Shown here: piece by piece, positions 48,130 through 62,527 of the stretch
Layout: every line of letters starts with the position of its first letter
How positions within the stretch are numbered: the first letter of the stretch is position 1
IMG/VR virus record: IMGVR_UViG_3300045988_182772
Reading direction: 5' to 3' (one strand)
Length of the DNA: 64,000 nucleotides
Source of the DNA: a virus
Made by a program: the position numbers and the translations under genes
The notes under the pieces: model-generated
Databases searched by the model: none
What the model was told of the DNA's origin: nothing
Seen by the model: only the letters and a program-made list of their open reading frames with translations

Positions 48130-49251
48130 GTGGTTGACATCACGAATACCAGTAATTTAGCCGCTGACCGTGCGCTTGCCTATGAAGCCATTGAAAGGCA
48201 GCCTGAAACAGAAGAAATCGCAGCTTCGAATGAACAGGAGACCGAAGCGAAGCAGCCGGGAAATATCGGCGACCATGTGGCGATGTATCTCAGCCAAATT
48301 GGCAGCATCCCCATTATGCCGCAGGTGGAAGCGAATCGCTGCATTGAAAAAGTGCAGAAGGGGAATGCCGCTGCCGAACAGCTCGAAACGCTGCGGGTGA
48401 TTGCCGAGGAGAGCGGGTATGCAGTTGACCCCGAAATCAAGAAAGACCTGATGAAGGCCATAGAAGCAGGAAGACGGGCGAAAGATAAGGTTGTTGAGGG
48501 CAATCTTCGGCTTGTTGTGTCCATCGCAAAGAAATATATAAACTCAGCCGATTCTATGGTGTTCATGGACCTCATCCAGGAGGGCAACATTGGCCTCATG
48601 CGTTCCATCGACTCTTTTGACATTTCGAGGAATGTGAAGTTTTCCACCTACGCAACCTTCTGGATAAGGCAAAACATCACAAGAGCGCTTGCCACGACGG
48701 ACCCAGCCATTCGCAAGCCCATCTATGTTGCGGAGGGCAGGCGGAGCGTCAATAATGCAAAAGAACAAATGCAACAAAAAGGCTTACCTTGTGATGACCC
48801 TTTAGAAATCGCAAAATACATGGAGGGGGATGCGTGGGATTCCCTTTCAAAAAGGGAGCAGCAGAAAAAACTGCGCATCATCCAACACTCGCTCCAGTAC
48901 CGGAAGCCGGACTCGTTGGATGCGCCCGTCAATTCGGACGCCGCAAGCGATTCCAACACACCGCTTTCGGAATTCATCCCAAGCCATAACGAGTGGGATA
49001 ACCCGGAAATTTCAACGTCAGGGAAGGCACTATGGGAAACGATGGACAAAATCCTGCACGATATGCCCGCACGAGACGCCTGTGTGCTTCGCTTACGATT
49101 CGGATTGGAGGATGGTTGTGCTTATACCCTCAAAGAAATCGGGGACGAAATGGACTTAACGCGAGAGCGTGTCCGTCAGGTTACAGATAAAACACTCGAT
49201 AAGCTACGCAACGGAAAGGCAGGGAAGATGCTTCAGGACTTTCTTGAATAA
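48130..49251 (+). CDS. sigma-70-family RNA polymerase sigma factor (regions 1.2, 2, 3, 4). Start uncertain: GTG 48130, GTG 48277 or ATG 48283.
   Basis: MYLSQIGSIPIM (region 1.2). LRLVVSIAKKY...FSTYATFWIRQNITRAL (region 2). AYTLKEIGDEMDLTRERVRQV (region 4). The track start 48079 would include the promoter, so it was trimmed. Confidence 0.7.
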   Translation: MVDITNTSNLAADRALAYEAIERQPETEEIAASNEQETEAKQPGNIGDHVAMYLSQIGSIPIMPQVEANRCIEKVQKGNAAAEQLETLRVIAEESGYAVDPEIKKDLMKAIEAGRRAKDKVVEGNLRLVVSIAKKYINSADSMVFMDLIQEGNIGLMRSIDSFDISRNVKFSTYATFWIRQNITRALATTDPAIRKPIYVAEGRRSVNNAKEQMQQKGLPCDDPLEIAKYMEGDAWDSLSKREQQKKLRIIQHSLQYRKPDSLDAPVNSDAASDSNTPLSEFIPSHNEWDNPEISTSGKALWETMDKILHDMPARDACVLRLRFGLEDGCAYTLKEIGDEMDLTRERVRQVTDKTLDKLRNGKAGKMLQDFLE

Positions 49252-49252: not shown

Positions 49253-49282
49253 AAACGCCGCCCAGATGGGCGGCGTTTTTTT
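49253..49282 (+). terminator. rho-independent terminator
   Basis: aaacgccgcccagatgggcggcg followed by ttttttt. Confidence 0.7.
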
Positions 49283-49359
49283 GCTATTCTCCGTTTCTTA
49301 AATCCAATCGAGCAGTTCCGCCAGCGTGAAGCGGACATTGCGCGTGACGATATGTATTC

Positions 49360-49500
49360 TTCGGTTCTCAGGTTCCCAACATTAAAATAGGCGTGTTTCC
49401 ATATTTGCCGGTATGCTCAGAGCATACAAAGGAAGTATCTCAAACACAAAGAAAGTTCAGTCAGCGGTTTTATCATGCCGCTGGCTTTTTATATATCAAA
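49360..49500 (+). repeat. conserved leader element copy 3
   Basis: ggttctcaggttcc...ccggtatgctcagagcatacaaaggaagtatctcaaacacaaagaaagttcagtcagcgg-ttttatcatg-ccgctggctttttatatatc. Confidence 0.6.
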
Positions 49501-49519
49501 AAAACACGAAAAAGGAGAA

Positions 49520-49891
49520 ATGAACATGAAAGCAATGATGTTTAAGAGGGGTTTCGGTGACGAAACAAAGTGGAAAGAGGTCTGCGCGGAGCTTGGGCTG
49601 CCGGAAGATACGGAGCAGGTTGAGTTGTCCGTATCCGCAACAAAGGTCCGTACCAGCCAAAACCGCAGTTGGGAAGCGACCGACGAGGAGATGTCCCGAA
49701 TTTGGGAACGCCTCGGCTCGTATTTCTTGCGCTGCGAGAGCATCTCCAGAACGAACATTCGCGTTTTCTGTGGCGGCGGAGATTCCTTTTCCGTTGTTCG
49801 CGGCACAACGCAGCCTGGATTCGTCGAGGTGGATGGACGGCTGATGGACTATGAAGACTTTGAAGCATGGCTGTACCAGATGGCAGCTTGA
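49520..49891 (+). CDS. hypothetical protein (123 aa)
   Basis: aaaaaggagaaatg directly after leader copy 3. Confidence 0.4.
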   Translation: MNMKAMMFKRGFGDETKWKEVCAELGLPEDTEQVELSVSATKVRTSQNRSWEATDEEMSRIWERLGSYFLRCESISRTNIRVFCGGGDSFSVVRGTTQPGFVEVDGRLMDYEDFEAWLYQMAA

Positions 49892-49904
49892 GAAAGGAGA
49901 AAAC

Positions 49905-50318
49905 ATGAACGCACAGGAAAAAATCGACCAGCTTATGCAAGCCGAGATGGAGCATATCCGTTCCGTCGGCGGCATTTTGAATCTGCCGGAGGCCGACAGT
50001 GTTCTGAACGACCTGAACCGAGAAAAGCTGAAGGCTCTGAAGGAACTGCACGGACATCTCTACCTCGGACGCATCAACATCCACGATACAGCCAAGCGGA
50101 TTCGTATTGTGGAAGGAACCGAAGATGTGTACGAGGAAATGCTGGACCAGCCCCTATACAACTTCTGCTGTGATTTTGCCGTGCCCGTCAAGGATAAAAC
50201 CTTGTCGGATTTGATTCGTGCTTGGAACGCAAGATTCGCGATTCCCGGTATGAAGGACGCGCAGAAAATCACAGAGCGTGTGGAGCAGGTTGGCGGCATA
50301 AATTTGATGTGGACTTAA
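49905..50318 (+). CDS. hypothetical protein (137 aa)
   Basis: RBS gaaaggagaaaac then ATG. Confidence 0.4.
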   Translation: MNAQEKIDQLMQAEMEHIRSVGGILNLPEADSVLNDLNREKLKALKELHGHLYLGRINIHDTAKRIRIVEGTEDVYEEMLDQPLYNFCCDFAVPVKDKTLSDLIRAWNARFAIPGMKDAQKITERVEQVGGINLMWT

Positions 50319-50335
50319 AAAAGGAGAAATGAAAC

Positions 50336-51331
50336 ATGAATAATAGAATCATGCCGAAGTGGAGCGAAGTAAAGGATGTCAATGGCATCAACCTTCACCT
50401 GTTCGACGCCGTACAGGTCATCACCTCCGGCAACAAGCGCAATAACCAGACGGGCAGAATCATTGCCCTTCTGAAGACCAAGCCTTACCTCCAGATGGTA
50501 GAGGTGCTGTTTAAGGACGGGAAGCGTTCAAATTTCCTCACGTCATCTCTTCGTCTCGTTGAAAGCTCAGAGGACGAGAAGGGAAAGGCACTGGCAAAAA
50601 TCGACTCCCTGAAGCTCATGGGAGCAGAAATCACCGACTCCGATTTCTGCGTTGACCGTTATAATAACGATGCTTTCCTATTTGACGATGAAACGCAGAC
50701 GTGGAACGTCATGCTGGAAGGCATTTCCGATGTGGACCGACTATTCGGAACCTTTTTTGAAACGGAGCAGAACGATTCCTACTGTAACATCTATGCGGAT
50801 GTAGACGAATACTGCACCAAGCTCGCAAAGCCATACCTCACGGTATCTCTGTGGCTCGGTGATGTCTGTGTAGAGGCAGTGCGCCCCTTATCAAAGGACG
50901 AGCAGGAAGCAGTGCTTCGCATCATCCGTCCTACCTACGAGAAGATGGACTACAAGAAGCTCCTGAAGGAGTGGGATGCGGAAGAGCAGAAATATGTGAA
51001 CAGCATCATGCTGGAAGACGGCGATGGCTGCTACGGGTACAAATTCGCTGCCGATACCATTGAGGCCGCTAAGGCTGGCTTCCATGAGGTCATCTGGATG
51101 GCGATTGAGCTGAAGCAGTACCGTTCCGGTCAGGATTTCAGCGTCAACTCCTTTATCGAGGACGGTAACGGCAAGTATGTCGAGTCCGACAGGGAAGGCC
51201 ACATCGTCATCAATCGCGTCGTCACAACGCAGGAACCCAGCAAGTATATCAACTGGGAGATGGCTGGCACGCTGCCATTCATCTATACGGTGGACCGCGA
51301 GAAGAGCGAGTGGAAGCTCCACGCGACTTAA
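50336..51331 (+). CDS. hypothetical protein (331 aa)
   Basis: RBS aaaaggagaaatg. Confidence 0.4.
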   Translation: MNNRIMPKWSEVKDVNGINLHLFDAVQVITSGNKRNNQTGRIIALLKTKPYLQMVEVLFKDGKRSNFLTSSLRLVESSEDEKGKALAKIDSLKLMGAEITDSDFCVDRYNNDAFLFDDETQTWNVMLEGISDVDRLFGTFFETEQNDSYCNIYADVDEYCTKLAKPYLTVSLWLGDVCVEAVRPLSKDEQEAVLRIIRPTYEKMDYKKLLKEWDAEEQKYVNSIMLEDGDGCYGYKFAADTIEAAKAGFHEVIWMAIELKQYRSGQDFSVNSFIEDGNGKYVESDREGHIVINRVVTTQEPSKYINWEMAGTLPFIYTVDREKSEWKLHAT

Positions 51332-51340
51332 CAACTGAAG

Positions 51341-51375
51341 CGCCGGTGGATGAAAATATCCGCCGGCGCTTTTTC
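51341..51375 (+). terminator. rho-independent terminator
   Basis: gcgccggtgg...ccgccggcgc followed by ttttt. Confidence 0.65.
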
Positions 51376-51399
51376 CATGTTTTGCCACAATCGAGTTCT

Positions 51400-51535
51400 C
51401 ATATTCTTGGGTTCTCCATCAGGAAATAGGTGATTTTTTCTCTTCTGCCGGTATGCTGAAATCATACAAAAGAAGTATCTCAAACACAAAGAAAATTCAG
51501 TCAGCGTCCGTTGCGGATGCTGGCTTTTATATATA
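51400..51535 (+). repeat. conserved leader element copy 4
   Basis: ccggtatgctgaaatcatacaaaagaagtatctcaaacacaaagaaaattcagtcagcgtcc-gttgc-ggatgctggcttttatatat. Confidence 0.6.
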
Positions 51536-51569
51536 AAAATTTCATAAACAAAAAGGAGAAACGAAAAAA

Positions 51570-52268
51570 ATGAAGAACAAGGCATATCTCTTACCAGCGT
51601 GCAAGACTGCTGACGGCGTTCCCATCGGCATTGGCTCCGAGGTGTACGCAATCACCTTTAAGCAGAAAGTCAACAAATACGGTCGGCTGTATCGTCCGTC
51701 CACGAGAGAGTTGGCGGTCGTAAAAGTAACGGTGTCTACTGTGACCTTCTCCGAATTTGTGGAACCCGGTTGGTTTGGCTGGACGGGCGTTGCCTATTCG
51801 GGAATGACCGAAGTCGAATGCTCTGATGGTAAAACGAAGACGTTTTCCTACTTGCCCGGTATCGAGGTCAGCCAGTACACCATCTTCGCATCCGAGGACG
51901 CCGCAAAGGCCGCCTTGGAGAAGGCGGAGGCGGGCGGCGGTCTCTATACGAGAGCCGGATTCCCGTTGATGCCTTCTTGGCAGATTGGCGAGGTACGGGC
52001 AGCTCTGGAGAAAGCTGAGCAGAGCACTGAGGAAGAGCCTTCCATCGTTCGCAACATCCCTTATGTCTCCGTTTGGGACGGCGGAAATTGCATTGCGGCG
52101 ACAAAGGCAGACGTCTGTCTGGACACAAAGCAGGTATTCAACATTCAGACCATTGACGTTGGAGATTCTGTCAATGTTCTGAACCATGAGTACATCGTGC
52201 TGCACGGAACAGAGTATACCGTTTTCCCGAAGGGCGAAGCGAAAGACGGCGCATACTGGCGTGACTGA
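51570..52268 (+). CDS. hypothetical protein (232 aa)
   Basis: aaaaaggagaaacg...atg after leader copy 4. Confidence 0.4.
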   Translation: MKNKAYLLPACKTADGVPIGIGSEVYAITFKQKVNKYGRLYRPSTRELAVVKVTVSTVTFSEFVEPGWFGWTGVAYSGMTEVECSDGKTKTFSYLPGIEVSQYTIFASEDAAKAALEKAEAGGGLYTRAGFPLMPSWQIGEVRAALEKAEQSTEEEPSIVRNIPYVSVWDGGNCIAATKADVCLDTKQVFNIQTIDVGDSVNVLNHEYIVLHGTEYTVFPKGEAKDGAYWRD

Positions 52269-52283
52269 CAAAAAAGAAGGAGA

Positions 52284-52958
52284 ATGAGAATTATGACTAA
52301 TATTAGTGAGAAAACCACCGGTTCCTGCAAAGACCGCGAGTATATCGTGACAGAGGTCTGCCCGCATTGCGAAGCAGAGGTCGAGATGCGCTGGAATGTG
52401 GCCGCAGACGGCTACAAGGCGTTCTGCCCTCATTGCGGCAATCGGCTGATGCTCTGCGACGCCTGCCAGCATCCGGAGGGCAAGTGCGTGGAGAACTGCG
52501 ATTACAACTCCGAGACCGATACCTGCCGTCATAATCAGCCTGCACAGGAGCTGAAGGTCGGCGATGTTTGTGCCTATGGCTTTGGGACGGAGAACGCTTC
52601 CCGTGCCACGGTCAAAATCGTCAAAATGCTTCCGGATTCCAACGGTGCCGCTGTGATGTTCTTGAGCGTTGAGAAGGACGATACCGGAAACGGTATGTTC
52701 AACTACCTGCTCAAAACCGGAAATACCATGAACGCCAGCTTGAAATACCTGACGAAGATTGAGTGCAGTTCCGACCAGGAACGGGATAACTACGCCGAAC
52801 TGGAGAAGCTGTGTACGGAATGCGACGCGGAGTTCTGCGTCTTCAATCCGCATGGCATCTGCAAGCTGCCCTTCGTCACCGGAAAGGCTCCGAGACTGGG
52901 CGATGACGGCTGCCAGGACTACGCTATGAAGGATTTCATGATGAAGGAGGATTGCTGA
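52284..52958 (+). CDS. Cys-rich hypothetical protein (multiple CxxC pairs)
   Basis: CPHCEAE...CPHCGN...CDACQH...CTECDAEFC. Confidence 0.4.
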   Translation: MRIMTNISEKTTGSCKDREYIVTEVCPHCEAEVEMRWNVAADGYKAFCPHCGNRLMLCDACQHPEGKCVENCDYNSETDTCRHNQPAQELKVGDVCAYGFGTENASRATVKIVKMLPDSNGAAVMFLSVEKDDTGNGMFNYLLKTGNTMNASLKYLTKIECSSDQERDNYAELEKLCTECDAEFCVFNPHGICKLPFVTGKAPRLGDDGCQDYAMKDFMMKEDC

Positions 52959-52959
52959 T

Positions 52960-53364
52960 ATGCAGAAGACTTGTCTCAACTGCACTCATGTGGGCGTGTG
53001 CTCCAAGCGGATGCAGTTCATCGTGAACAACTATCTCGTCAAAAGACACTACGACGAGATTGAGAATGTCAGCAAAACGCTCGATATCTCCGTGAACTGC
53101 GACAGCTATGCAGAAAAGGATTTCTTTTCGTTCATCTGTGCGCGGGTTCGCGACTATTCCGATGGCGAAGTCTGGAGCGATGGGGACCAGATTCTGTGCA
53201 AGACAGAATCTGCCGCGAACGCGCTGTGCGACCTCCTGTGGCAGCTTTACAACGAACGGGGGGAGGCCTTCGACCTCCACACCGGCTACTACGACCCCAA
53301 GGAGGACGAAAGAAATCACGAAGAAGACAGATACACCGGCTGGTGGTATGTGTCTGCCGACTGA
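52960..53364 (+). CDS. hypothetical protein (134 aa)
   Basis: Coupled start (TGATATG). Confidence 0.4.
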   Translation: MQKTCLNCTHVGVCSKRMQFIVNNYLVKRHYDEIENVSKTLDISVNCDSYAEKDFFSFICARVRDYSDGEVWSDGDQILCKTESAANALCDLLWQLYNERGEAFDLHTGYYDPKEDERNHEEDRYTGWWYVSAD

Positions 53365-53375
53365 AAGGAGAAATA

Positions 53376-53579
53376 ATGAAAATCCGCAATATCCTTTGGG
53401 ATACCGATGGCGGCAGGGAGGCTCTTGCCTCCCTGCCGAAGGAAGTCGAGCTGCCGAGTAGATTCGACCAGTCCCATTTTGCAAGTAGGGAAGAATGGCT
53501 CGACACGATTTCCAACTGGCTGTCCGACGAGTTTGGATTCTGTCATTTGGGGTTCGATGTCGGTGATGACGACATCTGA
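53376..53579 (+). CDS. small acidic hypothetical protein (67 aa)
   Basis: RBS aaaggagaaataatg. Confidence 0.3.
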   Translation: MKIRNILWDTDGGREALASLPKEVELPSRFDQSHFASREEWLDTISNWLSDEFGFCHLGFDVGDDDI

Positions 53580-53617
53580 GAATCTACGATTTTTTAACAA
53601 TAAGGAGAAATGAAAAA

Positions 53618-54535
53618 ATGGGAAAAGGTAATGTTTGTGTGAGCGGTCCGTATGAGGGCCTGTTCTATATCGACAACGACTATACCACAGTGCTTCGCCG
53701 CGAGGATGACTGTGAGGATACCATCCTCCAGAAAGACCTCAGCGCCAAGGATTTGTCCGGCAGCGACTGGTTCTTCGATGACGAAGGCAGTGCGAACGAG
53801 CTGGAGGATGTGCTGGAGTGCTTTGTGGAGAACTTCACGCACAGGTATCCCAGCTTTGCGCGTGTCAAGCAGGACAAGTGGCTTGGCCGTAATGTGCGCG
53901 TCATCCTCGAAAGCAGCCTGTTTTACATCGGCATTGAGGACAGCGACTGGGCCTATGCCGTGGAACTGCTTCAGAAGGATAACCCCTGTTCGGAGGGTTT
54001 CCAGAGGAAGCACTACAAGGCGTACCTTGACGGCATGAAAGCAGCCCTGCTGGAGCGCCTGCCAAGCATCGGCACCTACACGGGGCCGTGGACGCATGGC
54101 ACCATCCGCAGGGAGCCTGTCAAGGACAACGACCTCCTCGCCGAGGCCGGCGACCGCATCGACAACGCAGTGTTCGACTTCATCTGCGCGGTTGTCACAG
54201 GCCACAGCGTAAACGGGGAAGCGCCGAAAGAGGCTCTTCTCGCAGCTGTGAATGAGCTTTCCGTGGAACACGTCAACGCGCTTCCGGAGGGCCTCCTGTC
54301 TGACGCTACGGACGAGGCGAAGGAAGCCGCCGGCGAACACTCCTTACAGGAGGATGCCGACGACGGGCTTCCGCTTCGCTGGGATATGGCCGCCATTGGT
54401 CCTGTGGCCGACTATCTGGAAACCGCGCTTTCCGCACGGTTCCGCATCAATACCTGCCACCCCTGGCAGGATGATACCGAGTGCATCTGCTACGCGACAG
54501 ACGAGCGCTGCCCGTACTGCACCCACAAAATTTGA
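53618..54535 (+). CDS. hypothetical acidic protein (305 aa)
   Basis: RBS ataaggagaaatg. Confidence 0.4.
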   Translation: MGKGNVCVSGPYEGLFYIDNDYTTVLRREDDCEDTILQKDLSAKDLSGSDWFFDDEGSANELEDVLECFVENFTHRYPSFARVKQDKWLGRNVRVILESSLFYIGIEDSDWAYAVELLQKDNPCSEGFQRKHYKAYLDGMKAALLERLPSIGTYTGPWTHGTIRREPVKDNDLLAEAGDRIDNAVFDFICAVVTGHSVNGEAPKEALLAAVNELSVEHVNALPEGLLSDATDEAKEAAGEHSLQEDADDGLPLRWDMAAIGPVADYLETALSARFRINTCHPWQDDTECICYATDERCPYCTHKI

Positions 54536-54538
54536 TAA

Positions 54539-54570
54539 AAAAGCGCCGCCCGTAATGGACGGCGCTTTTT
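54539..54570 (+). terminator. rho-independent terminator
   Basis: agcgccgcccgtaatggacggcgct followed by ttttc. Confidence 0.7.
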
Positions 54571-54579
54571 CTTTGCAGT

Positions 54580-54725
54580 TCTCCGGTTCTTCAGTTCTCA
54601 GGTTCCTGGAAGGTGAATGCGGCAATTTCCACTTCCGCCGGTATGCTGAGACCATACCAAAGAAGTATCACAAACAAAAAAGAAAGTTCAGTCAGCGCCC
54701 GCGTGGGTGCTGGCTTTTATATATC
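54580..54725 (+). repeat. conserved leader element copy 5
   Basis: ccggttcttcagttctcaggttcc...ccggtatgctgagaccataccaaagaagtatcacaaacaaaaaagaaagttcagtcagcgccc-gcgt-gggtgctggcttttatatatc. Confidence 0.6.
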
Positions 54726-54750
54726 ACATAACCATCACAAAAAAGGAGAA

Positions 54751-55503
54751 ATGAAAATGGAGATTTATGTAAATTACCTCGCCATTGAGGTCACTCGTCG
54801 CTGCAACATGAAATGCAACCACTGCCTGCGCGGAGATGCGCAAAATCTTGACATCTCAACCGCAGTTCTGTCGGGCATCGCTAAGCATATCCACCCTGCT
54901 TCCGTCATTTTCACGGGCGGCGAGCCGTCTTTGAATGTTCCGGCCATCAAGCGGTACTTTGAGCTTGCGGAGCGTTATGACACGATGCCGGCTGCTTTCT
55001 ATGTCGCCACCAACGGAGCGACGTCGAAGGAGCAGATGCGCGACCTCGCGCTGACGCTGCTGGAGGCATATTCTAAGATGGAAGAGCCAGATATGTGCGA
55101 GGTCGATGTCTCTGTGGATATGTTCCACGAGGCGTTCCGCGACAACGACAACGCGAAAATTCTGAGAGGCTTGTCCTTCCTCGGCCGGGGTAAAAAGCAT
55201 TCGGTCGAGGATGACGATTTGAGTTGGCTGCTCAATACCGGCCGTGCCAACAAGAACGGCATCGGCGTAAGAGCACCGGAGGTGCTCAGGACCGACATGG
55301 ACGAGCTGGTAACGGATTACTCCACAGAGTACAACAGCATTGCCTTCGATACGCTCTACATTGCCGCAAACGGTAATGTGGTAGACGGCTGTGACAGCAG
55401 TTACGAGGATATCGACGACGAGGAGAACGTGATTTGCAAGGTCAACCAGCTTCAGAAGAAAGTGAAAGACTATGTGAAGAACGCCGATTCTCAAATCTCA
55501 TAA
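54751..55503 (+). CDS. radical SAM domain protein (250 aa)
   Basis: CNMKCNHC (Cx3Cx2C) at residues ~17-24. Gly-rich SAM motif FTGGEPSL. Confidence 0.6.
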   Translation: MKMEIYVNYLAIEVTRRCNMKCNHCLRGDAQNLDISTAVLSGIAKHIHPASVIFTGGEPSLNVPAIKRYFELAERYDTMPAAFYVATNGATSKEQMRDLALTLLEAYSKMEEPDMCEVDVSVDMFHEAFRDNDNAKILRGLSFLGRGKKHSVEDDDLSWLLNTGRANKNGIGVRAPEVLRTDMDELVTDYSTEYNSIAFDTLYIAANGNVVDGCDSSYEDIDDEENVICKVNQLQKKVKDYVKNADSQIS

Positions 55504-55515
55504 GGAGGGCTGAAG

Positions 55516-56946
55516 ATGTTTGGTTTAGACAATCTGTTTGCTCAGACATCCGCACAGAAATTCTACATTAGCAGAGACCGAATCGCGGAAATCCTGCGTG
55601 TCAGTCCTGATGCACTGGACGCCTTCGAGAAGGCTTATTCCAAAGCTGCGTTGCAGACTGAGCCAGAAAGCATTTTCGAGGTTAATTCCAGGCAGGCAGC
55701 GGCGAAAAACGAGCGGCTCGGCGACGACAGCCCGGAAGAGCTGAAAGCTCTTACGGAACGCATCGTGAAGGAGCTTATCTGGCAGACGCTGACCTACACT
55801 TATGATGGGCAAACAGGCAAAATTGAAAAATCGCTTTCCAACGCACCGGAGAAAAATGCTCCTGTCACCAATCAGGACCTGCTGCGAATTCCCGCTTCGC
55901 TGCGACCGCAGCTGAGTGGGGAACTGATGAAGCGAGACCTTGACATCACCGCCTCAGCTGTGTTCCTGTTCTACTACGACAAGATGCAGAACGGGAAGAC
56001 GCCGAAGGACCGTCGGGATGCGTATAACCGCTTTCGGCAGGGACTGGACATCCTTGACCTTGATGCGCTGGCCTACCGCATCATCGGGCAGAATCGCAAC
56101 TCCATCGGACATTGGTTCCCGGAGCTTGTGCGCGCCTACCGGGATTCTGGATTCTTCCGGATTCCGGCAACGACGATAGCCAAGGTTCCCCTGACGCTCT
56201 TACAGCTGACTCGTCTGGACTATCACAGCCTAACGCCTTCGACCATCCAAATCGTCGATAACTGGGCGCACGCTGTATTTCGCCTGAATGACGAGCGGGA
56301 TTACTTCGTGAAAACCGGCACCTATTCATCGAAGTTCGACTTCCGGAATTGCCTGGTACACGGAGAAAAAGAGGTTCGAGAGCTTGGCGAGTATTTGCTC
56401 TACATCCACCATCAGGCGTTACAGATGGCCGGTCCCCTTAGCTTTCCCTGCATTTATGGGGTCTCAACGACAAATGAGTGGGTCGTGCGGGAATTCATTC
56501 CAGATAAAGAGGGAAATCCCTGTATCTATCATGGTTTGCCGCTTCATACGGAATATCGCGTATTTGTTGACTGTGACAGCGATGCTGTCATCGGTGTCTC
56601 TCCCTATTGGGAGCCGAAGACTATGCTCAATCGCTTTGGTTCATGCTCGGACGCAAACAGTCCGCATCAGATGCACGATTATGTGATTTTCAAAAGTCAC
56701 GAAGCGACCTTGATGCGGCGCTACCATGAGAATGTCGATTCCGTGGTGGAACACATTCGGGAATTTCTGCCGGCGCTTGACCTGCAAGGCCAGTGGAGCA
56801 TCGACGTGATGCAGAATGGTGACGATTTCTGGATTATCGACATGGCTGTGGCGGAAAATTCAGCGTTCTATGATTGCGTGCCGGAGAGCCTCCGCAGGCC
56901 ATCTGCTGAAAACTGGATACCCGATATTCTGAAGCCCAACAACTGA
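55516..56946 (+). CDS. hypothetical protein with ATP-grasp-like C-terminal region
   Basis: ...PLHTEYRVFVDCDSDAVIGVSPYW resembles the ATP-grasp EYRVFV strand. Weak call. Confidence 0.35.
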   Translation: MFGLDNLFAQTSAQKFYISRDRIAEILRVSPDALDAFEKAYSKAALQTEPESIFEVNSRQAAAKNERLGDDSPEELKALTERIVKELIWQTLTYTYDGQTGKIEKSLSNAPEKNAPVTNQDLLRIPASLRPQLSGELMKRDLDITASAVFLFYYDKMQNGKTPKDRRDAYNRFRQGLDILDLDALAYRIIGQNRNSIGHWFPELVRAYRDSGFFRIPATTIAKVPLTLLQLTRLDYHSLTPSTIQIVDNWAHAVFRLNDERDYFVKTGTYSSKFDFRNCLVHGEKEVRELGEYLLYIHHQALQMAGPLSFPCIYGVSTTNEWVVREFIPDKEGNPCIYHGLPLHTEYRVFVDCDSDAVIGVSPYWEPKTMLNRFGSCSDANSPHQMHDYVIFKSHEATLMRRYHENVDSVVEHIREFLPALDLQGQWSIDVMQNGDDFWIIDMAVAENSAFYDCVPESLRRPSAENWIPDILKPNN

Positions 56947-56974
56947 TTTTCTTGACTCGAAAGGAGACAGAAGC

Positions 56975-57520
56975 ATGAAATTGCTGAAAGACTACGAATC
57001 CTCCTCTCTCACCCTTAAACGGGTTCGGGAGGTCATCGACAGGGCACTGGACGAGCTGGAGTATGACTCCAGGTTCGACGTCAATGTGGCTGCCGAGAAC
57101 GCCTATTATTACTTGGCACACACCGCCTGTTGGGACGAGGACTTGGCCGCATTCCAGGCCCAGCTGGACAACGGCTGCGGTCCTGACGACGGTGCCGGGG
57201 CGCTGACCGCTTATGAGCGCGTCGAAATCCTGGCCGCACAGGTCGAACGACTCCTGAACGACAAGGAGACCTATGCGTACAGCAAGACCATCGACGAAGA
57301 TGCCCTGCTGGACATTGTTGCCAAGACCCATCCAAGGCTGCTGGCTAAGCGGCCAGCCGATATGTCCGTTGAGGATTTCAAACACCTCTGGACTATGGTA
57401 GTTTCTGCCTACATCGTGGGCGGACGCGACTATGCCGAGGACGAGTTCATCAACTATACGGATGCCGTCGGCGCGACGCCAGAGGCCGTCGCTGCGGTTA
57501 TCCGGGCGGGCAATGAATAA
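56975..57520 (+). CDS. acidic hypothetical protein (181 aa)
   Basis: Net strongly negative. RBS aaaggagacagaagcatg. Confidence 0.4.
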   Translation: MKLLKDYESSSLTLKRVREVIDRALDELEYDSRFDVNVAAENAYYYLAHTACWDEDLAAFQAQLDNGCGPDDGAGALTAYERVEILAAQVERLLNDKETYAYSKTIDEDALLDIVAKTHPRLLAKRPADMSVEDFKHLWTMVVSAYIVGGRDYAEDEFINYTDAVGATPEAVAAVIRAGNE

Positions 57521-57549
57521 GAAAAATACGGAAAAAGGAGAAATGAAAA

Positions 57550-58311
57550 ATGATTAAAAGTTTGAACAAAGCATATCAGACCGATTCCATGTATTACTGG
57601 TGTAACGCCGAGGGCGAGGTAAACTATCCCGGTTCTGGGTTTTCGACAGGTGACTCTGAGCGGCTTCCCGCTGCGGTGAAGGAACTGTACGAACACTATC
57701 AGCTCAGCACCGGCTACGACGCAAATCTCTATACGGTCACTTACAGCGGCGAGGATGGGATGCTCCTCACGACGATGTTCAACAGTAACTGGATGGATGT
57801 CCCTGCTGTCAAGGACGCCAAACAGAAGGCGAGGAAAGCGCTCCGCAGCATTGCAACGGAACTGACCAGGCAGTGCAAGCCGTGGGGGACCGTTCTGTTC
57901 GGCGAGGATACCGACCCGGAGGGTGACGAAATTGCCCTGTTTGTCCCTGCGGAGGAGTGTGCGAGTCACTTTGAGGAAGCGGTAAAGCTCTTCGATGCCA
58001 GCGCCTTCTTTGAGCGAGTCAGGGACAAGGTTGCGGAATGCCGCTATCTTGTGTTCCTGAATAGCTCGTATGTGCGCGACGCGCAGGGCTACTTCCCCCA
58101 GCAGCTGTCCGAGGATGCTGACCCGATGGATGAATCTCAGGAGGGCAACTGGGCGGACTGCGGTGGTCCCATGCTCGTCATGGACGTATACGCAGTCTCC
58201 AAGGCCGAGGTCGCCCAGAAGATTGCCGAGGCATATCCCAATGTGGATATGGCAGTCTTCAAGATTCTCCGCTGCGACGGGGAAATGACAGAGGTGACGG
58301 CCCTTGTATAA
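57550..58311 (+). CDS. hypothetical protein (253 aa)
   Basis: RBS aaaaggagaaatgaaaaatg. Confidence 0.4.
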   Translation: MIKSLNKAYQTDSMYYWCNAEGEVNYPGSGFSTGDSERLPAAVKELYEHYQLSTGYDANLYTVTYSGEDGMLLTTMFNSNWMDVPAVKDAKQKARKALRSIATELTRQCKPWGTVLFGEDTDPEGDEIALFVPAEECASHFEEAVKLFDASAFFERVRDKVAECRYLVFLNSSYVRDAQGYFPQQLSEDADPMDESQEGNWADCGGPMLVMDVYAVSKAEVAQKIAEAYPNVDMAVFKILRCDGEMTEVTALV

Positions 58312-58516
58312 AATCAAGAACCTGACGTCTCTGCTGCATACCGTGGAAGCCGGCAGATACGGCAGCCTACCCGTCTATACACTGCACGGGGAGAAGGTCT
58401 GGAACAGAATCGGCGACCGCGTGGAACTGCACCTTGGCAACGGAAATAATGTTCTCTGCTCTGAGAAGGTGTTCCGGAAGGTCGAACCCTTTCTGGAGGC
58501 CATTCCCAAGTCTTAA
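58304..58516 (+). CDS. small hypothetical protein (70 aa)
   Basis: Overlaps the upstream stop. Confidence 0.3.
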   Translation: MYKIKNLTSLLHTVEAGRYGSLPVYTLHGEKVWNRIGDRVELHLGNGNNVLCSEKVFRKVEPFLEAIPKS

Positions 58517-58520
58517 ACCT

Positions 58521-58553
58521 GAGCGCCGCCCCTTTGTGGGCGGCGCTTTTTCT
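58521..58553 (+). terminator. rho-independent terminator
   Basis: gagcgccgcccctttgtgggcggcgct followed by ttttc. Confidence 0.7.
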
Positions 58554-58574
58554 TTTTGTCTTTTCACACTCCAG

Positions 58575-58720
58575 ATTTGAGGTTCCTCGGTTCTTAGGTT
58601 CCAATTTGCAAAATGCGGAGTTTTCCGTGCCTGCCGGTATGCTGAGACCATACAAAAGAAGTATCACAAACACAAAGAAAATTCAGTCAGCGTCCATACG
58701 GATGCTGGCTTTTATATATC
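58575..58720 (+). repeat. conserved leader element copy 6
   Basis: gaggttcctcggttcttaggttcc...ccggtatgctgagaccatacaaaagaagtatcacaaacacaaagaaaattcagtcagcgtcc-atac-ggatgctggcttttatatatc. Confidence 0.6.
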
Positions 58721-58750
58721 AAAAAAATTTCAAAAAAGGAGAATTAAAAA

Positions 58751-59296
58751 ATGGAAAAAATGATTCAAATTGCAGAAAGCTACGGATGGGCAGTCGATAT
58801 GGACAGCGATAGCATCGAATTTAACCAGTGCAGTCCGGCGGGGGAAGATTTCTCCTTCACGGTTCTGACGAAAGACGCATCTGACGCCGAGAGTCTTGCA
58901 GCCGAAGTCCGTTCTTACGCGGACAGCTTCGATACCGAGGAACACGTCAAGATGTTGGTCGATGCGCAGGGCAGCGTGAGTGGTGTGCCAGACATCAAGA
59001 CGTTGGTGGAAGACGCTGACGCCATCCAAGAGATGCTCAACGACCTTGCTGACGCTCTTGAAAATGGCGACGCCAACACAGATGACGAGGAGACTGAAGC
59101 CTGCGGCCTCGAAGGCACTTACGAGTGGCTTCTGAACAACTTCGACATCGACGGCACGGCGGGTCGCATTATCCACAATGTTTTGGAGTATGCCGACCGC
59201 ATGACTGGCGACGAGCAGTATGAGTTCTTGACGGAGATGCTGGATGGAACGATTGGTCTGTCTGACCGCGAAATCAGGAATCTCTGCTGGAACTGA
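58751..59296 (+). CDS. very acidic hypothetical protein (181 aa; DNA-mimic-like composition)
   Basis: High D/E content throughout (DADAIQEMLNDLADALENGDANTDDEETEA...). Confidence 0.4.
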   Translation: MEKMIQIAESYGWAVDMDSDSIEFNQCSPAGEDFSFTVLTKDASDAESLAAEVRSYADSFDTEEHVKMLVDAQGSVSGVPDIKTLVEDADAIQEMLNDLADALENGDANTDDEETEACGLEGTYEWLLNNFDIDGTAGRIIHNVLEYADRMTGDEQYEFLTEMLDGTIGLSDREIRNLCWN

Positions 59297-59311
59297 GTGG
59301 GGGATAACCCT

Positions 59312-59542
59312 ATGAAGAAACTGACTGTTTTCGACTTTTGCAGCCAAATCGGTGCCGCCAGCGATGAAATCCCTGTCGTAGTTCGCGTCGGCTTGCAGGA
59401 GATTGGGCATTTTCGCAGCCTATACCAGATTCCGGCAGTCGCTATGCCGGGTATCCTGGAAGCAAAAGTGACATTCGTGACTGTCAAATGTACGCAAATT
59501 ATCATCCAAGTGAAGACGAAGGATTACAACACAACCATTTGA
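59312..59542 (+). CDS. small hypothetical protein (76 aa)
   Basis: In-frame ATG inside track ORF 59297..59542. Confidence 0.3.
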   Translation: MKKLTVFDFCSQIGAASDEIPVVVRVGLQEIGHFRSLYQIPAVAMPGILEAKVTFVTVKCTQIIIQVKTKDYNTTI

Positions 59543-59564
59543 AAACCGAAAGGAGAAGATTTCT

Positions 59565-59756
59565 ATGTTTTATGTTTTGGATTTCCATTCTCACCGGTTC
59601 ACTACCTGTGAGACCGTAGAGGAAGTGAACGAGAAGCTCAAGCAGCTTCAGGATTCCGGTGTTGCCGAGGACGAAATCTCCGTCATCAATCGACTGGTCG
59701 ATGACTGTGAAATGAGTATCAACGCTTACCGGGATTTTGCACGCAGCTACTGCTGA
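59565..59756 (+). CDS. small hypothetical protein (63 aa)
   Basis: RBS aaaggagaagatttctatg. Confidence 0.3.
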   Translation: MFYVLDFHSHRFTTCETVEEVNEKLKQLQDSGVAEDEISVINRLVDDCEMSINAYRDFARSYC

Positions 59757-59778
59757 ACGCGGAAAGGAGAAGTAAAAA

Positions 59779-60693
59779 ATGAATCAGGAAATGGTAAAAG
59801 CTGAAAAGCGATTCGCAAACCACAAGGCACGCCTCGACATTCTGGACGAAAACGTGCGCGTTCTGAACTGGAGACAGCCAGGGACGCAGGCGTACGCGAT
59901 TCGTGCGGTGATGGACGGCTATCATGTGTATATCACCGGAGACCTTGGCTCTGCGGTCATTTGCCTGACGGAGACTGCCACTTTGAAGGCTCTTTCCGGC
60001 TACTGGAAGAAACCCGGCTATTTCATGGAGAAGTTTGTCTGCACAACGGACGACTACTTCTTTGATTACGAAACGGCCAAGGGTGAGCTTCGTGAGCGCA
60101 AGACCATGTTGCTGGAAGAGTATAGGGACAATCATCCCGATATGCTCGCAAACGGAGAAACAGAGTATCAGGACGACCTCGACGAGAGAGAAACGGACCT
60201 GCTGGGCAGCTTCAACTCTGAGAAGGGCTTCGTGGCAAATCCCGTTGCCTTCTCCGCATGGCTGGAGATGGACGAGGACGGCGTGGAGACCGTCCCGTAT
60301 ATGGGACGAACCATCGCACACCGCATTTGGCTGTGGCTGGCCGCGTTCAAGATGGCCTATGAGGCGCTTCAAGACACCTCCACCGAGCGTTACACGCAGG
60401 AGTACCTGGACGCCATTGAGCGGAATACTCCACCCCGCAACGGCGCACCCATCGGCCGAGACTCCTTCGAGTGGGCCGGATGCGCAGAAGAGTTGAGTGT
60501 CTGCAACGTAGCACATCTGCTGGCTGCCGCCAAGCGGACGCCGGGATATTTTCAGGTTCGTTCCGCGCTCTGCGGTATGCCTGTCATCAGAGAACGTTAT
60601 GCGGACACAATGGCACTGCTCAACAAGGTAAAGGGTACAGACGCCTACGATATCCTTGCCCAGCTGATGCAGCAGGCGGAAAGGGAGGCGTAA
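59779..60693 (+). CDS. hypothetical protein (304 aa)
   Basis: RBS gaaaggagaagtaaaaaatg. Confidence 0.4.
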   Translation: MNQEMVKAEKRFANHKARLDILDENVRVLNWRQPGTQAYAIRAVMDGYHVYITGDLGSAVICLTETATLKALSGYWKKPGYFMEKFVCTTDDYFFDYETAKGELRERKTMLLEEYRDNHPDMLANGETEYQDDLDERETDLLGSFNSEKGFVANPVAFSAWLEMDEDGVETVPYMGRTIAHRIWLWLAAFKMAYEALQDTSTERYTQEYLDAIERNTPPRNGAPIGRDSFEWAGCAEELSVCNVAHLLAAAKRTPGYFQVRSALCGMPVIRERYADTMALLNKVKGTDAYDILAQLMQQAEREA

Positions 60694-60694
60694 A

Positions 60695-61477
60695 ATGAGC
60701 ATGACAATCTTCGATGCGTGGCACATCGGAAAGCCGCAGAGTATCTACGACCTCACGATTATGGCGCGTTGCGTACAGGGTATTCAGGAAGAAACACGAG
60801 CGGCGGATATCGCCGAAGATGTAGTTTCTTCTGCCTTGCTGCCGTGGCTCAGAAGCGCTCTTGAGTTCTTCGGAGATGACGCGGCGGATGAATTTGCCAT
60901 TCTCGTCGGCGGCGCGGTCTACCCCGTCTTACTGCGGAATTCGTGGCGAGCCACATGGTTATTCCCGTCTGAGGAGCGCAAAGGCTTGGAGGAGTTCCTG
61001 ACCAAACATCTGGAAGGGAACGATGTCCCCAATCGTAAAGAAAGCATGGAAAATTTGCAGGCTGTCTGCGAGGCGGTCTACGAATTCTCCGCGCAGTCCA
61101 ATCCGAGCCTCTGCTTCCTGAGCGATTCTGCCGGGAAAGACGTCTATGTAAGGGGTTTTGGCTTAACAAAAAAAGCCACCCAGTACCTTGATTCGCTCTA
61201 TGAGCGTTTCGAGTATACGAACGCCTGCGAAATGGACGAACGCGATTTCCCCGCGTTGAAGAAGCAGCTCGCCGCGTCTTCGGATAAGGCGGCGCTGCTC
61301 AGCAAGGCACAGGAGGAACGCGGTGCGCTCTGGGATGACGCTCTGAATGGCTGTACGCGGTTCAAGGATGCTGCCCTTACTTTCGACCTGGATGACACGG
61401 GAAATAAAGCAAAAAAGGTCGCGGAGCTTCGCAAGGCAGCCAAAATCATTTTTGAAGAAGGTAAAGGAGAAAAATGA
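60695..61477 (+). CDS. hypothetical protein (260 aa)
   Basis: Coupled (TAAAATG). Confidence 0.4.
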   Translation: MSMTIFDAWHIGKPQSIYDLTIMARCVQGIQEETRAADIAEDVVSSALLPWLRSALEFFGDDAADEFAILVGGAVYPVLLRNSWRATWLFPSEERKGLEEFLTKHLEGNDVPNRKESMENLQAVCEAVYEFSAQSNPSLCFLSDSAGKDVYVRGFGLTKKATQYLDSLYERFEYTNACEMDERDFPALKKQLAASSDKAALLSKAQEERGALWDDALNGCTRFKDAALTFDLDDTGNKAKKVAELRKAAKIIFEEGKGEK

Positions 61478-61890
61478 CAATGAGAACACTGGTGCGTTTT
61501 GAGTATGACATTGAGAATGTGAAGCTGTTCGATATCGTGGATGGCGGCGCTGTGCATGGTGCGTTCAATGGCAACCTAACCATTTACTTCGACATGAGCG
61601 AGGATGGGAAGCTGCTGGATGAATCCAAGCAGGCGCTCCGTCTGGAGGCACGGCGCATCTGCCGTGCGCTCAAGAACCGGGGGATGAATGCTACCGTGTC
61701 CATCCTGAACGCCGATACGAAGGCCGTATATGGCCGCGTGTTTGCGGAGCACCCTGAAATCTTCACGCTTCTCCTGTGGAACCACGGGAGAGGGAATGAC
61801 CTGTCGAAGGAACAGCACGCGCTTACGCCGTCCGGCGTATACAAGGCGCTGGAGCGTATCCTCACGGACATTCGTTCCAACGCGGCGTGA
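61474..61890 (+). CDS. hypothetical protein (138 aa)
   Basis: ATGA overlap with the upstream stop. Confidence 0.4.
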   Translation: MTMRTLVRFEYDIENVKLFDIVDGGAVHGAFNGNLTIYFDMSEDGKLLDESKQALRLEARRICRALKNRGMNATVSILNADTKAVYGRVFAEHPEIFTLLLWNHGRGNDLSKEQHALTPSGVYKALERILTDIRSNAA

Positions 61891-61906
61891 GAGGGGAGGC
61901 GGAGAC

Positions 61907-62452
61907 ATGGGATGCTTTTCCTGGCTTTTTGCCGATACTGACAACACACAGAACCTGCGTACTGACCGGGCAGGCTATATTGCCTGCCCGGACGGGACCT
62001 TTATCCACGAGCCATGCTATGAAGGCTACGGCGAGTTCAACGGGCAGGATGTGTACGAACTGGTCGTTCGGTGGAACCGCGCATTCATCGCGGAGAATCC
62101 GGACTTCCTGCTTCCGCATATCCACCGCTTCTACAACGGGAGCGTAAAGCAGTACCGTCTGAAGGATTTCAGATGGTATCCGGTCATTGCAGACCTGTCC
62201 ATCCCGTTTGAGCAGCTGCGTGACGCGCTCGACAAGCATCTGAGGGAACCCGTCAGCTTATACCGGCCCTATAGTGCCGAGCTTCGCGGCATCGGCATCG
62301 ACATTGCCTGCTACAACGAGGACAACGCAGCTCTTCCGTATCCCATCAAGATTACCCGGAAGATGCGGGGCGTCCACTATGAAGACCTTCCAGCAAGCAA
62401 AAATGACCCGGAACAGGGAGCGGGAATCTACCATGCCGTGAGATGGCAATAA
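61907..62452 (+). CDS. hypothetical protein (181 aa)
   Basis: RBS gaggggaggcggagacatg. Confidence 0.4.
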   Translation: MGCFSWLFADTDNTQNLRTDRAGYIACPDGTFIHEPCYEGYGEFNGQDVYELVVRWNRAFIAENPDFLLPHIHRFYNGSVKQYRLKDFRWYPVIADLSIPFEQLRDALDKHLREPVSLYRPYSAELRGIGIDIACYNEDNAALPYPIKITRKMRGVHYEDLPASKNDPEQGAGIYHAVRWQ

Positions 62453-62527
62453 TTTTATCGGAAAGGAGAATGCCGTTTCTCCCCCACGCGCCGAAAGGCG
62501 TGGGGGGAGGAGCGGCCAATATTTTTT

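Follow-up and report, generated by a model that had tools for sequence, protein, structure and literature searches.

Small-gene cassettes behind a repeated leader: a possible establishment regulon in a conjugative element of gut Oscillospiraceae

The island and its cassettes

The stretch of DNA considered here is 64,000 nucleotides (nt) of IMG/VR record IMGVR_UViG_3300045988_182772 (the window), treated below as part of a large conjugative element. Our subject is an island of 20 open reading frames (ORFs; g1 to g20), all on the + strand, at 49520-62452, together with the leader sequence, ~165 nt long, that heads each of its four gene groups. The island is 93% coding and its proteins are small: the mean is 199 amino acids (aa) and the median 181 aa, whereas genes elsewhere in the window have a median of 358 aa. 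Shine-Dalgarno (SD) sequences of the AGGAG/GGAG type lie 5-12 nt upstream of 19 of the 20 ORFs; the exception is g15, which has a GTG start. The ORFs form four groups, or cassettes (g1-g3, g4-g8, g9-g13 and g14-g20), with short gaps inside them. The spacers between groups are 221-238 nt long and are built in one order: first a strong hairpin, rich in GC and with a T-run, that closes the unit before it; then the leader, up to the next start codon. The sigma factor gene that precedes the island and cassettes 1-3 each have a hairpin and T-run of their own just upstream of the next leader. The features of the island are as follows.

49358-49519, + strand: leader copy 1; GGTTCY repeats, core GGTATGCT..CATAC..GAAGTATC, hairpin 49459-49486 with T-run, AGGAG ribosome-binding site (RBS)
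49520-51331, + strand: cassette 1; g1 (49520-49891), g2 (49905-50318), g3 (50336-51331); no family match for any
~51340-51373, + strand: terminator at the end of cassette 1, from its sequence
51397-51569, + strand: leader copy 2; terminator hairpin 51499-51525
51570-54535, + strand: cassette 2; g4 (51570-52268), g5 (52284-52958), g6 (52960-53364), g7 (53376-53579), g8 (53618-54535)
~54543-54570, + strand: terminator at the end of cassette 2, from its sequence
54587-54756, + strand: leader copy 3; terminator hairpin 54690-54715
54757-55503, + strand: cassette 3, g9; Pfam PF04055, CNMKCNHC motif
55516-56946, + strand: cassette 3, g10; 476 aa, ATP-grasp fold in a structure model
56975-58516, + strand: remainder of cassette 3; g11 (56975-57520, acidic), g12 (57550-58311, acidic), g13 (58304-58516, doubtful TTG start)
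58521-58558, + strand: terminator at the end of cassette 3, from a terminator scan
58583-58750, + strand: leader copy 4; terminator hairpin 58685-58710
58751-59296, + strand: cassette 4, g14; the most acidic product
59297-62452, + strand: remainder of cassette 4; g15 (PHROG 38679), g16, g17 (PHROG 5051), g18, g19, g20; no function assigned to any

A first-pass annotation of this DNA had described about 20 small co-directional genes, with a mean of ~170 aa and many overlapping stop/start pairs, in units that are each terminated and then re-initiated through a conserved leader. Number, direction and small size hold, with the mean somewhat larger than was claimed, and so does the alternation of terminator and leader: a terminator ends the sigma gene and each of cassettes 1-3, and a leader heads each cassette. 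Coupling of stop to start is real, but ‘many’ overstates it. At five of the 16 within-cassette junctions the gap is 1 nt or less, and two of these are true overlaps (the five read TGATATG, TGAGTG, TAAAATG, a 4-nt ATGA overlap, and an 8-nt overlap onto a doubtful TTG start); the remaining gaps are 11-38 nt, with an SD sequence at each. The four leaders are confirmed; they are not specific to the island, as positions 2883-3056 and 7272-7465 hold two more. In build the leader is fixed, and it directly adjoins the RBS of the first gene of its unit; the units are insulated from each other by terminators, and the repeats occur nowhere in the window but in leaders.

The leader

The two leaders outside the island lie across the conjugation genes from it:

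2883-3056, + strand: leader; GGTTCY repeats inverted, 9-nt insertion
7272-7465, + strand: leader; heads a 315-aa ORF, an ERF gene (8414-9208) and a primase-like Zn-finger/DUF3854 gene (9279-10763)

Headed by the leader at 2883 are a small ORF and, at 3272-7231, the genes of a 583-aa protein without a Pfam match and of a VWA/CobT-like protein; the latter, of 713 aa, has a long low-complexity linker rich in Q, N, G and S.

In ~1.2 Mb of fetched loci an nhmmer profile located 268 leader copies; the window has 6, the genome contig that matches it (see below) at least 17, and each of the two longest related contigs 13-14. Every copy lies in gene orientation and ends at an RBS (AGGAG). The anatomy was read from 137 distinct copies, with the first base of the core, which is invariant, as reference for all positions. 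The GGTTCY hexamers have a period of 8 nt and begin near -55, -47 and -39. Three short blocks come next: AAT (-24 to -22), whose A at -24 is shared by 137 of 137 copies, TTT (-14 to -12) and GCC (-3 to -1). After the core, GGTATGCT-N5-CATAC-N4-GAAGTATCACAAAC, comes an A-rich tract; the 3' part then consists of TTCAG, an 11-pair hairpin, GGCTTTTATATA, ~20 AT-rich nt and AAGGAG. The spacing of AAT and TTT to the core is fixed even where the 9-nt insertion shifts the distal repeats. Pairs of the form GGTTCY-NN-GGTTCY occur five times in the window, all inside leaders, compared with 0.15 expected. In the leader at 2883 the GGTTCY motif is flipped to the opposite strand, the remainder of that leader being oriented as usual; this independence of orientation fits a protein-binding site in DNA better than an RNA motif.

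The second of the two hairpins of the leader, the 11-pair stem, is selected on the sense strand, hence in the transcript, to judge from its substitutions: 96.6% of its cells in the alignment are paired, or 97.6% in another count, six pairs have changed on both sides, and 83 cells are G.U compared with at most 19 non-standard cells (A.C included), so that G.U stands far above A.C. There are 58 double-changed cells, compared with 20.6 in column shuffles, none of 500 of which reaches 58; when the partner strand is slid by 1-3 columns as a control, pairing falls to 28-40%. A U-run, GGCTTTTATATAT, follows the stem in nearly all copies, and these hairpins rank among the top-scoring terminator-like sites in the scan. 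A covarying sense-strand helix followed by a U-run has the form of an intrinsic (Rho-independent) terminator, and the hairpin is predicted to be one. Folded as RNA from the core to the T-run, the four island leaders are more stable than their shuffles (z -3.4 to -5.0); the two distal leaders give z -1.4 and -1.7. The template (minus) strand, folded as single-stranded DNA, gives z -1.5 to +0.2 and two short hairpins only. One variant leader (locus L069, 792-1001) lacks 63 nt, including the whole terminator hairpin, through a deletion between short CAT repeats; core and RBS are kept, and the core is fused directly to the RBS of the downstream gene. Loss of exactly the terminator hairpin, seen in this single contig, is as expected of a negative, dispensable element.

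The first hairpin, H1 (GGTATG/CATACC), is invariant in 53 of 53 representative copies. Among 38 diverged copies, five changes keep a G.U pair and two give A.C, both of these at the loop-closing pair; H1 as an RNA hairpin is suggested by these changes but not conclusively. A pairing of TTCC with the RBS (anti-SD), which appeared in an RNAalifold run on six copies, was gone with 53.

Several promoter classes were tried on the leader by eye and by scan: none of the sigma-70, sigma-54, sigma-D/FliA, sporulation-sigma or extracytoplasmic-function (ECF) consensus sequences fits it in both sequence and spacing. A reading of GCCGGTAT as a sigma-D -10 box (GCCGATAT) was rejected: it stands ~4 nt too far from the AAAT block, and with transcription beginning in the H1 loop there would be no H1. 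Rfam gave no match to the leader at gathering score in the window, where its only match is a HEARO RNA, and none to the leader core at E values up to 1.

In the related loci, some leaders look chimeric (L014, L091, L096, L107 and L127): the 5' half resembles one window copy, and the 3' half and the gene resemble another. These may be recombinants within the core or assembly chimeras; the contigs are mostly short and of low coverage. The order of cassettes (g1 > g4 > g9 > g14) is constant in long contigs, where replacements involve single genes only, and a role of leaders as recombination joints that shuffle cassettes is therefore not claimed.

Proteins of the island

Searches of all 20 proteins against Pfam, NCBIfam and PHROGs, and of their concatenate against PDB, assigned no function beyond one radical-SAM match; three proteins match PHROG families with no assigned function (g10, PHROG 12834; g15, 38679; g17, 5051). 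The earlier statement that none is recognisable by motif was thus nearly right, with g9 as the exception. It matches Pfam PF04055 (radical SAM) at 35.0 bits, above the cutoff of 29.5, and carries CNMKCNHC (CxxxCxxC) at residues 16-23; it belongs to no curated subfamily, its NCBIfam matches lying far below their cutoffs. By this motif and domain score g9 is classed as a divergent radical-SAM enzyme. Cysteine-rich products are found in cassette 2: g5 has 18 Cys and a weak, sub-threshold Zn-ribbon match in Pfam, g6 has 7 Cys, and the acidic g8 has a Cys cluster at its C-terminus.

Homologues are abundant for g10. It has more than 1950 of them, the best 120 listed at 55-67% identity, and has neither a Pfam match nor a name. 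In its AlphaFold2 model (predicted local distance difference test score 87, predicted template-modelling score 0.87) the C-terminal ~300 residues adopt an ATP-grasp fold: Foldseek gives probability 1.00, with Cdc123 first (E 4e-5), then DdlB, RimK and LysX/ArgX. An extra region of ~200 residues precedes this domain, and there is no match to Pfam DUF4343 (R2K.2). On the model, g10 is an ATP-grasp enzyme closest to Cdc123; on its homologues, it belongs to a strongly conserved family that is spread very widely over the mobile elements of Gram-positive bacteria. Those homologues are met in several settings. One lies in a small-gene run downstream of RecG, DUF1064 and sigma factor genes, at an element end bounded by a serine recombinase; another lies beside PcfJ. 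A third, on the Bifidobacterium conjugative megaplasmid pMP7017, lies in a co-directional small-gene run with a Lar restriction-alleviation gene, a 2.8-kb DNA methyltransferase gene and a second ATP-grasp gene. The long run on pMP7017 (locus L197, 120554-149906, Bifidobacterium breve) also contains an RNA ligase family gene and genes for ASCH, YafQ toxin, AAA ATPase and TnpB proteins. The possibility that g9 and g10 form a conserved enzyme pair was dropped, as g10 homologues elsewhere have no neighbouring radical-SAM gene. No leader-like sequence precedes the small-gene run beside the g10 homologue in L194, an unrelated element.

Acidity is the property that had suggested DNA mimicry. The three products singled out as strongly acidic (56975-57520, 58751-59296 and 53376-53579) are indeed so: g11 at -9%, g14 at -19% and the 67-aa g7 at -13% net charge per residue. 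g16 (-11%) and g8 (-10%) are similar, and g12 falls within the range of -8 to -13%. The charge of g14 is -35 over 181 aa (isoelectric point 4.05). Taken together, the island products are moderately more acidic than those from elsewhere in the window (a median of -4.9% net charge versus -2.2%; Mann-Whitney p = 0.012). The high negative charge expected of DNA mimics is therefore present, as net charge, in g14, g7, g8, g11, g12 and g16. Relatives are another matter: ArdA and similar proteins gave no Pfam, NCBIfam or PDB sequence match among the 20 proteins, and the proposed relation to Ard/Ocr-type mimics finds no support in sequence or fold apart from a marginal AcrIIA4-like fold in g14. At least two island products, g9 by its domain match and g10 by its model, are enzymes and not mimics.

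g14 has an N-terminal alpha-beta3-alpha2 domain (residues 1-105, with the motif W..SPAGEDF..FD.EEH..GVP) and a C-terminal helical domain. Its match to the fold of AcrIIA4 (PDB 5vzl_C) is marginal, at 10% identity, and a profile of 36 g14 homologues did not retrieve AcrIIA4 from PDB sequences at E values up to 10. Stand-alone homologues of the N-terminal domain occur on other elements. One, on an integrated element, lies beside LPD29, DpnD/PcfM, toxin-antitoxin and methyltransferase genes; another is the first gene after a divergent pair of helix-turn-helix (HTH) regulator genes.

A paralogue of g1 (MKLVLAKQDF..., motif LGLP..T.QVE.S.SATKVRT) lies ~15 kb to the right of the island in a 136-kb IMG/VR contig (L190:17072-17494); some island genes thus belong to small paralogous families within the element.

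Genes headed by the leader elsewhere

In the related loci, 840 ORFs downstream of leaders fall into 196 clusters, most with no Pfam match. Those that can be recognised include DNA functions (ERF, YqaJ exonuclease, RecD2-like and RecG helicases, RecJ, RNase H), nucleotide functions (anaerobic ribonucleotide reductase NrdD, a nucleotidase, a P-loop kinase) and a miscellany: an orphan C5 DNA methylase, a DpnD/PcfM-like protein, an LPD1 polyvalent-protein domain, a sortase and a serine recombinase. Some leader-headed operons combine such genes: ERF with the primase-like protein, the 583-aa protein with the VWA (CobT-like) protein, and YqaJ exonuclease with the RecD2-like helicase. ArdA, KlcA, SSB, PsiB and known anti-CRISPR proteins are absent from the recognisable clusters; ArdC, ArdA and ribbon-helix-helix (RHH) Reg-like proteins gave no match in the window or in the cassette clusters scanned. 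As annotated, the regulon is a mix of DNA-processing functions and many orphans; since the leader also heads operons of DNA metabolism, it is wider than anti-defence.

The element

The view that the window belongs to a conjugative element is supported by its Pfam matches: a VirD4-type coupling protein (17454-19730), a VirB4-like ATPase (22759-25251), a pilin-like protein, a CHAP/lysozyme cell-wall hydrolase, a signal peptidase and a primase-like protein. Further genes encode flotillin, UDG, UvrD, a NERD nuclease and two transposon nucleases of the RNA-guided kind, TnpB, and IscB with its HEARO RNA; all genes of the window share a single coding strand. Topoisomerase III lies in the left flank; on the right, a secreted SLH/beta-lactamase-family protein follows the island directly (from ~62528), with YqaJ exonuclease and the RecD2-like helicase further on. 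Capsid, terminase, portal and tail genes were not seen in the window, the flanks or the large ORFs of related loci. The element is accordingly treated as a large conjugative element, either an integrative and conjugative element (ICE) or a megaplasmid; the ‘viral’ label of IMG/VR is unconfirmed.

An exact-pattern scan for the leader core in 185,579 genomes hit one species representative, Oscillospiraceae bacterium CM18GR_63, on a 570-kb contig to which the window is 92-99% identical. The pattern also occurs on human-gut metagenome contigs of up to 159 kb (among the matches listed) and on IMG/VR contigs of 27-136 kb. Megablast of 42-64 kb gave one 161-nt match in a phage collection and none in a plasmid collection. 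Pfam searches found no relaxase in the window ORFs, both 10-kb flanks, the large ORFs of the ~1.2 Mb of related loci or the 10 kb beyond the RecD2-like gene, and no oriT was found there. A scan for tRNA and tmRNA was negative, and no large ORF has the DxDGD-type motif of a single-subunit or YonO-like RNA polymerase.

Directly upstream of the island lies a gene of the sigma-70 family:

48079-49251, + strand: RpoD-like sigma-70 family gene; Pfam Sigma70_r2 and r4

It is preceded by TTGACA-17-TATAAT, extended by TG (48079-48107); no other perfect promoter came up in the scan of 47.5-63 kb. Given the position of this one, the true start codon of the sigma gene should lie downstream of 48107. The gene ends in a terminator at ~49255-49282. 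Regions 2.4 and 4.2 of the protein, read from its sequence, appear RpoD-like. It is the last of three consecutive sigma-related genes (45408-49251), the others encoding a 420-aa protein (an HTH resembling sigma region 4 plus a domain like the C-terminal domain of RNA polymerase alpha) and a ~129-aa sigma70-r4 protein; DUF1064 and a 167-aa ORF are interspersed among the three. A similar layout of DUF1064, sigma and small genes stands beside the g10 homologue in L194.

Interpretation

One way to understand the island is as four consecutive cassettes of an accessory ‘establishment / host-interaction’ regulon, carried by a large conjugative element of gut Oscillospiraceae, switched through its leaders and delivering mostly orphan products. 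We put the probability of this reading at roughly 0.45, a little short of even. That is, the GGTTCY repeats at 8-bp spacing would be the operator of a DNA-binding regulator encoded by the element; the block from -39 to -1, with AAT at -24 to -22 and TTT at -14 to -12, would be a non-canonical promoter just downstream of the repeats; transcripts would start at or near the invariant GGTATG, so that every mRNA opens with the same hairpin and A-rich tract as its 5' untranslated region (UTR); the built-in terminator would keep the cassette off unless a factor of the element permits read-through; and at least 17 operons would then be expressed together and solely on demand, as when a new host is entered. 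The products, among them a putative radical-SAM enzyme, a putative Cdc123-like ATP-grasp ligase, Cys-rich and perhaps Zn-binding proteins and acidic proteins, of which g14 may be a nucleic-acid mimic, would be mostly orphans, probably acting on host factors.

In favour of this interpretation we count the conjugative context, the number and constancy of leader copies, the substitutions and folding of the terminator hairpin and the changes in H1, the confinement of the repeats to leaders, the terminators between cassettes, the L069 variant, the genes that leaders head elsewhere, the nature of the island proteins, and the precedent of EGeRS1 and EGeRS2 (see below). Several observations weigh against it. 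No sigma-70-type hexamer pair is present in any leader scanned or in the 137-copy position profile, and we infer the leader promoter from its position only. The RpoD-like sigma factor of the element would be expected on TTGACA/TATAAT promoters, not on the leader. The invariance of H1 leaves no covariation signal by which to judge it, and conservation of the leader could partly reflect recent duplication, with copies drawn from closely related elements. Transfer polarity has no relaxase or oriT to anchor it, and homology assigns no counter-defence function to any island protein.

A bolder version is unlikely. It supposes that the leader is a new composite module (tandem-hexamer operator, non-sigma-70 promoter, UTR with 5' hairpin, terminator), read only with factors of the element (such as the two sigma-region-4 proteins and the upstream sigma) as an entry switch for at least 17 operons; the island would hold several new counter-defence proteins, among them a new family of acidic AcrIIA4-like SPAGEDF mimics, found widely on mobile elements of Firmicutes, and an ATP-grasp ligase of Cdc123 type with a host protein as its substrate.

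The first-pass annotation had likened the island to a leading region, or anti-defence island, and of that comparison the conjugative context stands, together with a layout of the establishment type; the ArdA/Ocr mimicry is not supported. Taken in full, as a region that enters the recipient first and defends the element with acidic Ard/Ocr-type DNA mimics, it is somewhat unlikely. Its genes are co-directional, small and acidic, as such a region would have them; homologues of g10 and g14 on other mobile elements lie beside a Lar gene, methyltransferases, LPD and DpnD/PcfM genes, in which leading regions are rich (PMC11541004). Neither relaxase nor oriT was found in the window, flanks or related loci, however; ArdA and Ocr are matched by neither sequence nor fold, the AcrIIA4 match is marginal and lacks sequence support, and g9 and g10 look like enzymes. 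The leader also heads operons ~45 kb away, across the genes of the type IV secretion system (T4SS), and operons of DNA metabolism, so that the regulon is not confined to one region beside an oriT. The promoter of single-stranded DNA, of the Frpo/ssi type, or a priming site on the transferred strand, is a related possibility: such promoters precede leading-region genes in other plasmids (PMC11541004), and the leaders too, which contain inverted repeats, have small co-directional genes of a conjugative element downstream of them. It is largely refuted and can be given very little weight, as the template strand folds no more stably than its shuffles, there are no -35 and -10 hexamers to place in a duplex, and the structures lie on the sense strand, which cannot be the template for these genes.

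A different perspective removes the promoter from the leaders altogether. The island would be read from the promoter at 48079 through the sigma gene, and each leader would be a nut- or put-like site at which processive antitermination is reloaded. Bipartite antitermination is known in Gram-positive conjugation operons, in the conAn system of pLS20; the leaders have no sigma-70 hexamers, whereas a perfect promoter lies upstream; both leader hairpins behave as sense-strand RNA; and all the genes are co-directional. Two terminators per cassette and a fresh RNA site every 2-4 kb would nonetheless not be expected of processive antitermination, the AAT and TTT keep a fixed spacing upstream of the core, and GGTTCY is orientation-independent in one copy, as fits a DNA site. 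The leaders at 2883 and 7272, moreover, have no such strong promoter upstream. On account of the repeat orientation, the doubled terminators and these distal leaders, read-through is rated below the establishment regulon and seems quite unlikely. Less likely still is a phage or phage-plasmid whose early ‘host take-over’ region is transcribed from phage-type early promoters. IMG/VR lists contigs of the element, of 27-136 kb, as viral; PHROG families are matched by three of the island proteins; among the genes in related leader cassettes are those for NrdD, RecJ, RNase H, ERF, YqaJ exonuclease and nucleotidase; and a g14-domain homologue comes first after a divergent HTH pair on another element. 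These points are outweighed by a full set of T4SS genes, by the absence of capsid, terminase, portal and tail genes from the window, flanks and large ORFs of related loci, and by megablast, with its single 161-nt match in the phage collection and none in the plasmid collection.

Relation to known systems

An establishment-type regulon marked by a repeated regulatory sequence is a known arrangement; here it comes with a leader that appears to be undescribed and a load of orphan genes. The nearest parallel to the regulon proposed here is in pLS20 and p576, where the repeated sequences EGeRS1 and EGeRS2 abut the RBS of variable establishment operons made up mostly of genes with no assigned function (PMC8708921; PMC6294495). 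EGeRS1, 420-750 bp long and with many inverted repeats, is without a constitutive sigma-A promoter and stops read-through from upstream; EGeRS2, which does have a clear sigma-A promoter, has about one fifth of the length of EGeRS1 (PMC8708921). Immediately upstream of its -35 lie tandem heptamer direct-repeat operators (TTATCCCnnTTATCCC), bound by an RHH repressor (PMC8708921; PMC6294495). The likeness is in the plan: several copies of one sequence per element, each ending at the RBS of a small operon. The leader, at ~165 nt, differs in length and motifs from the EGeRS as PMC8708921 describes them; the host class is also different, and no sequence relation is expected. It joins three hexamer repeats, spaced at 8 bp, to an invariant 5' hairpin and one canonical intrinsic terminator; that predicted terminator would be its block to read-through. 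No ardC or reg homologue was found in the window or the scanned cassette clusters.

Other systems share single aspects. The CUP (conserved upstream) repeats within the IncN plasmid pKM101's leading region, reportedly described by Delver and Belogurov in 1997, are said to be controlled by ArdK/ArdR and to run into the starts of several co-directional genes, anti-restriction genes included, which make up a single regulon. They belong to a Gram-negative host, have a strong sigma-70 promoter, are mapped next to oriT and are not known to contain a terminator hairpin. In phage lambda, promoter-proximal terminators are read through with the help of an element-encoded factor, at pR'-tR' with Q and at nut sites with N. 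There too a conserved initial transcript ends in a terminator before the genes, if the leader start site is as we infer; the leader module differs in being present at least 17 times per element, one per small operon, and no Q- or N-like protein was identified. In Frpo, the transferred strand folds into a long imperfect hairpin, whose duplex restores -35, -10 and UP elements (PMC11541004). Like the leader, Frpo/ssi sequences stand upstream of early, co-directional establishment or anti-defence genes on conjugative elements; unlike them, the leader has neither hexamers nor a stable single-stranded DNA fold, and its hairpins are on the sense strand. On pMP7017, a 34-bp motif overlaps the -10 box of 19 promoters (PMC10832533). 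This is likewise a plasmid-wide regulon on a large Gram-positive gut conjugative plasmid, and one with a g10 homologue in a small-gene run; its motif is another one, lies inside a canonical promoter and has no hairpin or terminator module.

Two proteins invite comparison as well. Bacterial relatives of Cdc123, the R2K families, are predicted peptide or protein ligases in phage-host conflicts (PMC4431377). The second ATP-grasp gene of pMP7017, two genes from the g10 homologue, recalls the linked R2K.2/R2K.3 pairs; g10 differs from R2K in its lack of a DUF4343 match and in its N-terminal extension of ~200 residues. AcrIIA4 is a phage anti-CRISPR protein and an acidic DNA mimic (PDB 5vzl_C). g14 differs from it by the extra C-terminal helical domain. 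We know of no counterpart to its conserved SPAGEDF and FDxEEH motifs.

How conjugative elements of the dominant gut Clostridia establish themselves in new hosts and evade defences is poorly understood. The leader offers a sequence tag that marks the whole candidate establishment set; each element has at least 17 of these operons, and public gut metagenomes contain hundreds of leader copies. EGeRS served the same tagging purpose in the pLS20 family. It appears to be an undescribed regulatory element that combines control at the levels of DNA and RNA. Two of the protein families reach well past this element, that of the g10 ATP-grasp protein (more than 1950 homologues) and that of the g14 ‘SPAGEDF’ domain; both are candidates for new counter-defence or host-modifying functions.

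Other features of the window

A second repeated control family (D4) is made up of consensus promoters, TTGAC-N17-TGTGGTATAAT, with ~55 nt of flanking sequence in common. They lie at 19817, 20471, 34601, 39058 and 48078 (and at about 31230), upstream of T4SS-associated genes, UDG, UvrD and the sigma gene; with the leaders, they give the element two distinct classes of control region. The HEARO RNA (Rfam RF02033, 87 bits) is at 42403-42566, within a region (42403-44299) that contains an IscB-like RRXRR gene with its likely start near 42905. Between RNA and gene are three 39-nt direct repeats (42708, 42774 and 42842), 66-68 nt apart and 79-95% identical. An IS605-type TnpB gene (OrfB_IS605 and Cas12f-like TNB domains; 32958-34070) is inserted between the flotillin gene and the UDG region, and another TnpB gene lies just left of the window in related contigs (L181).

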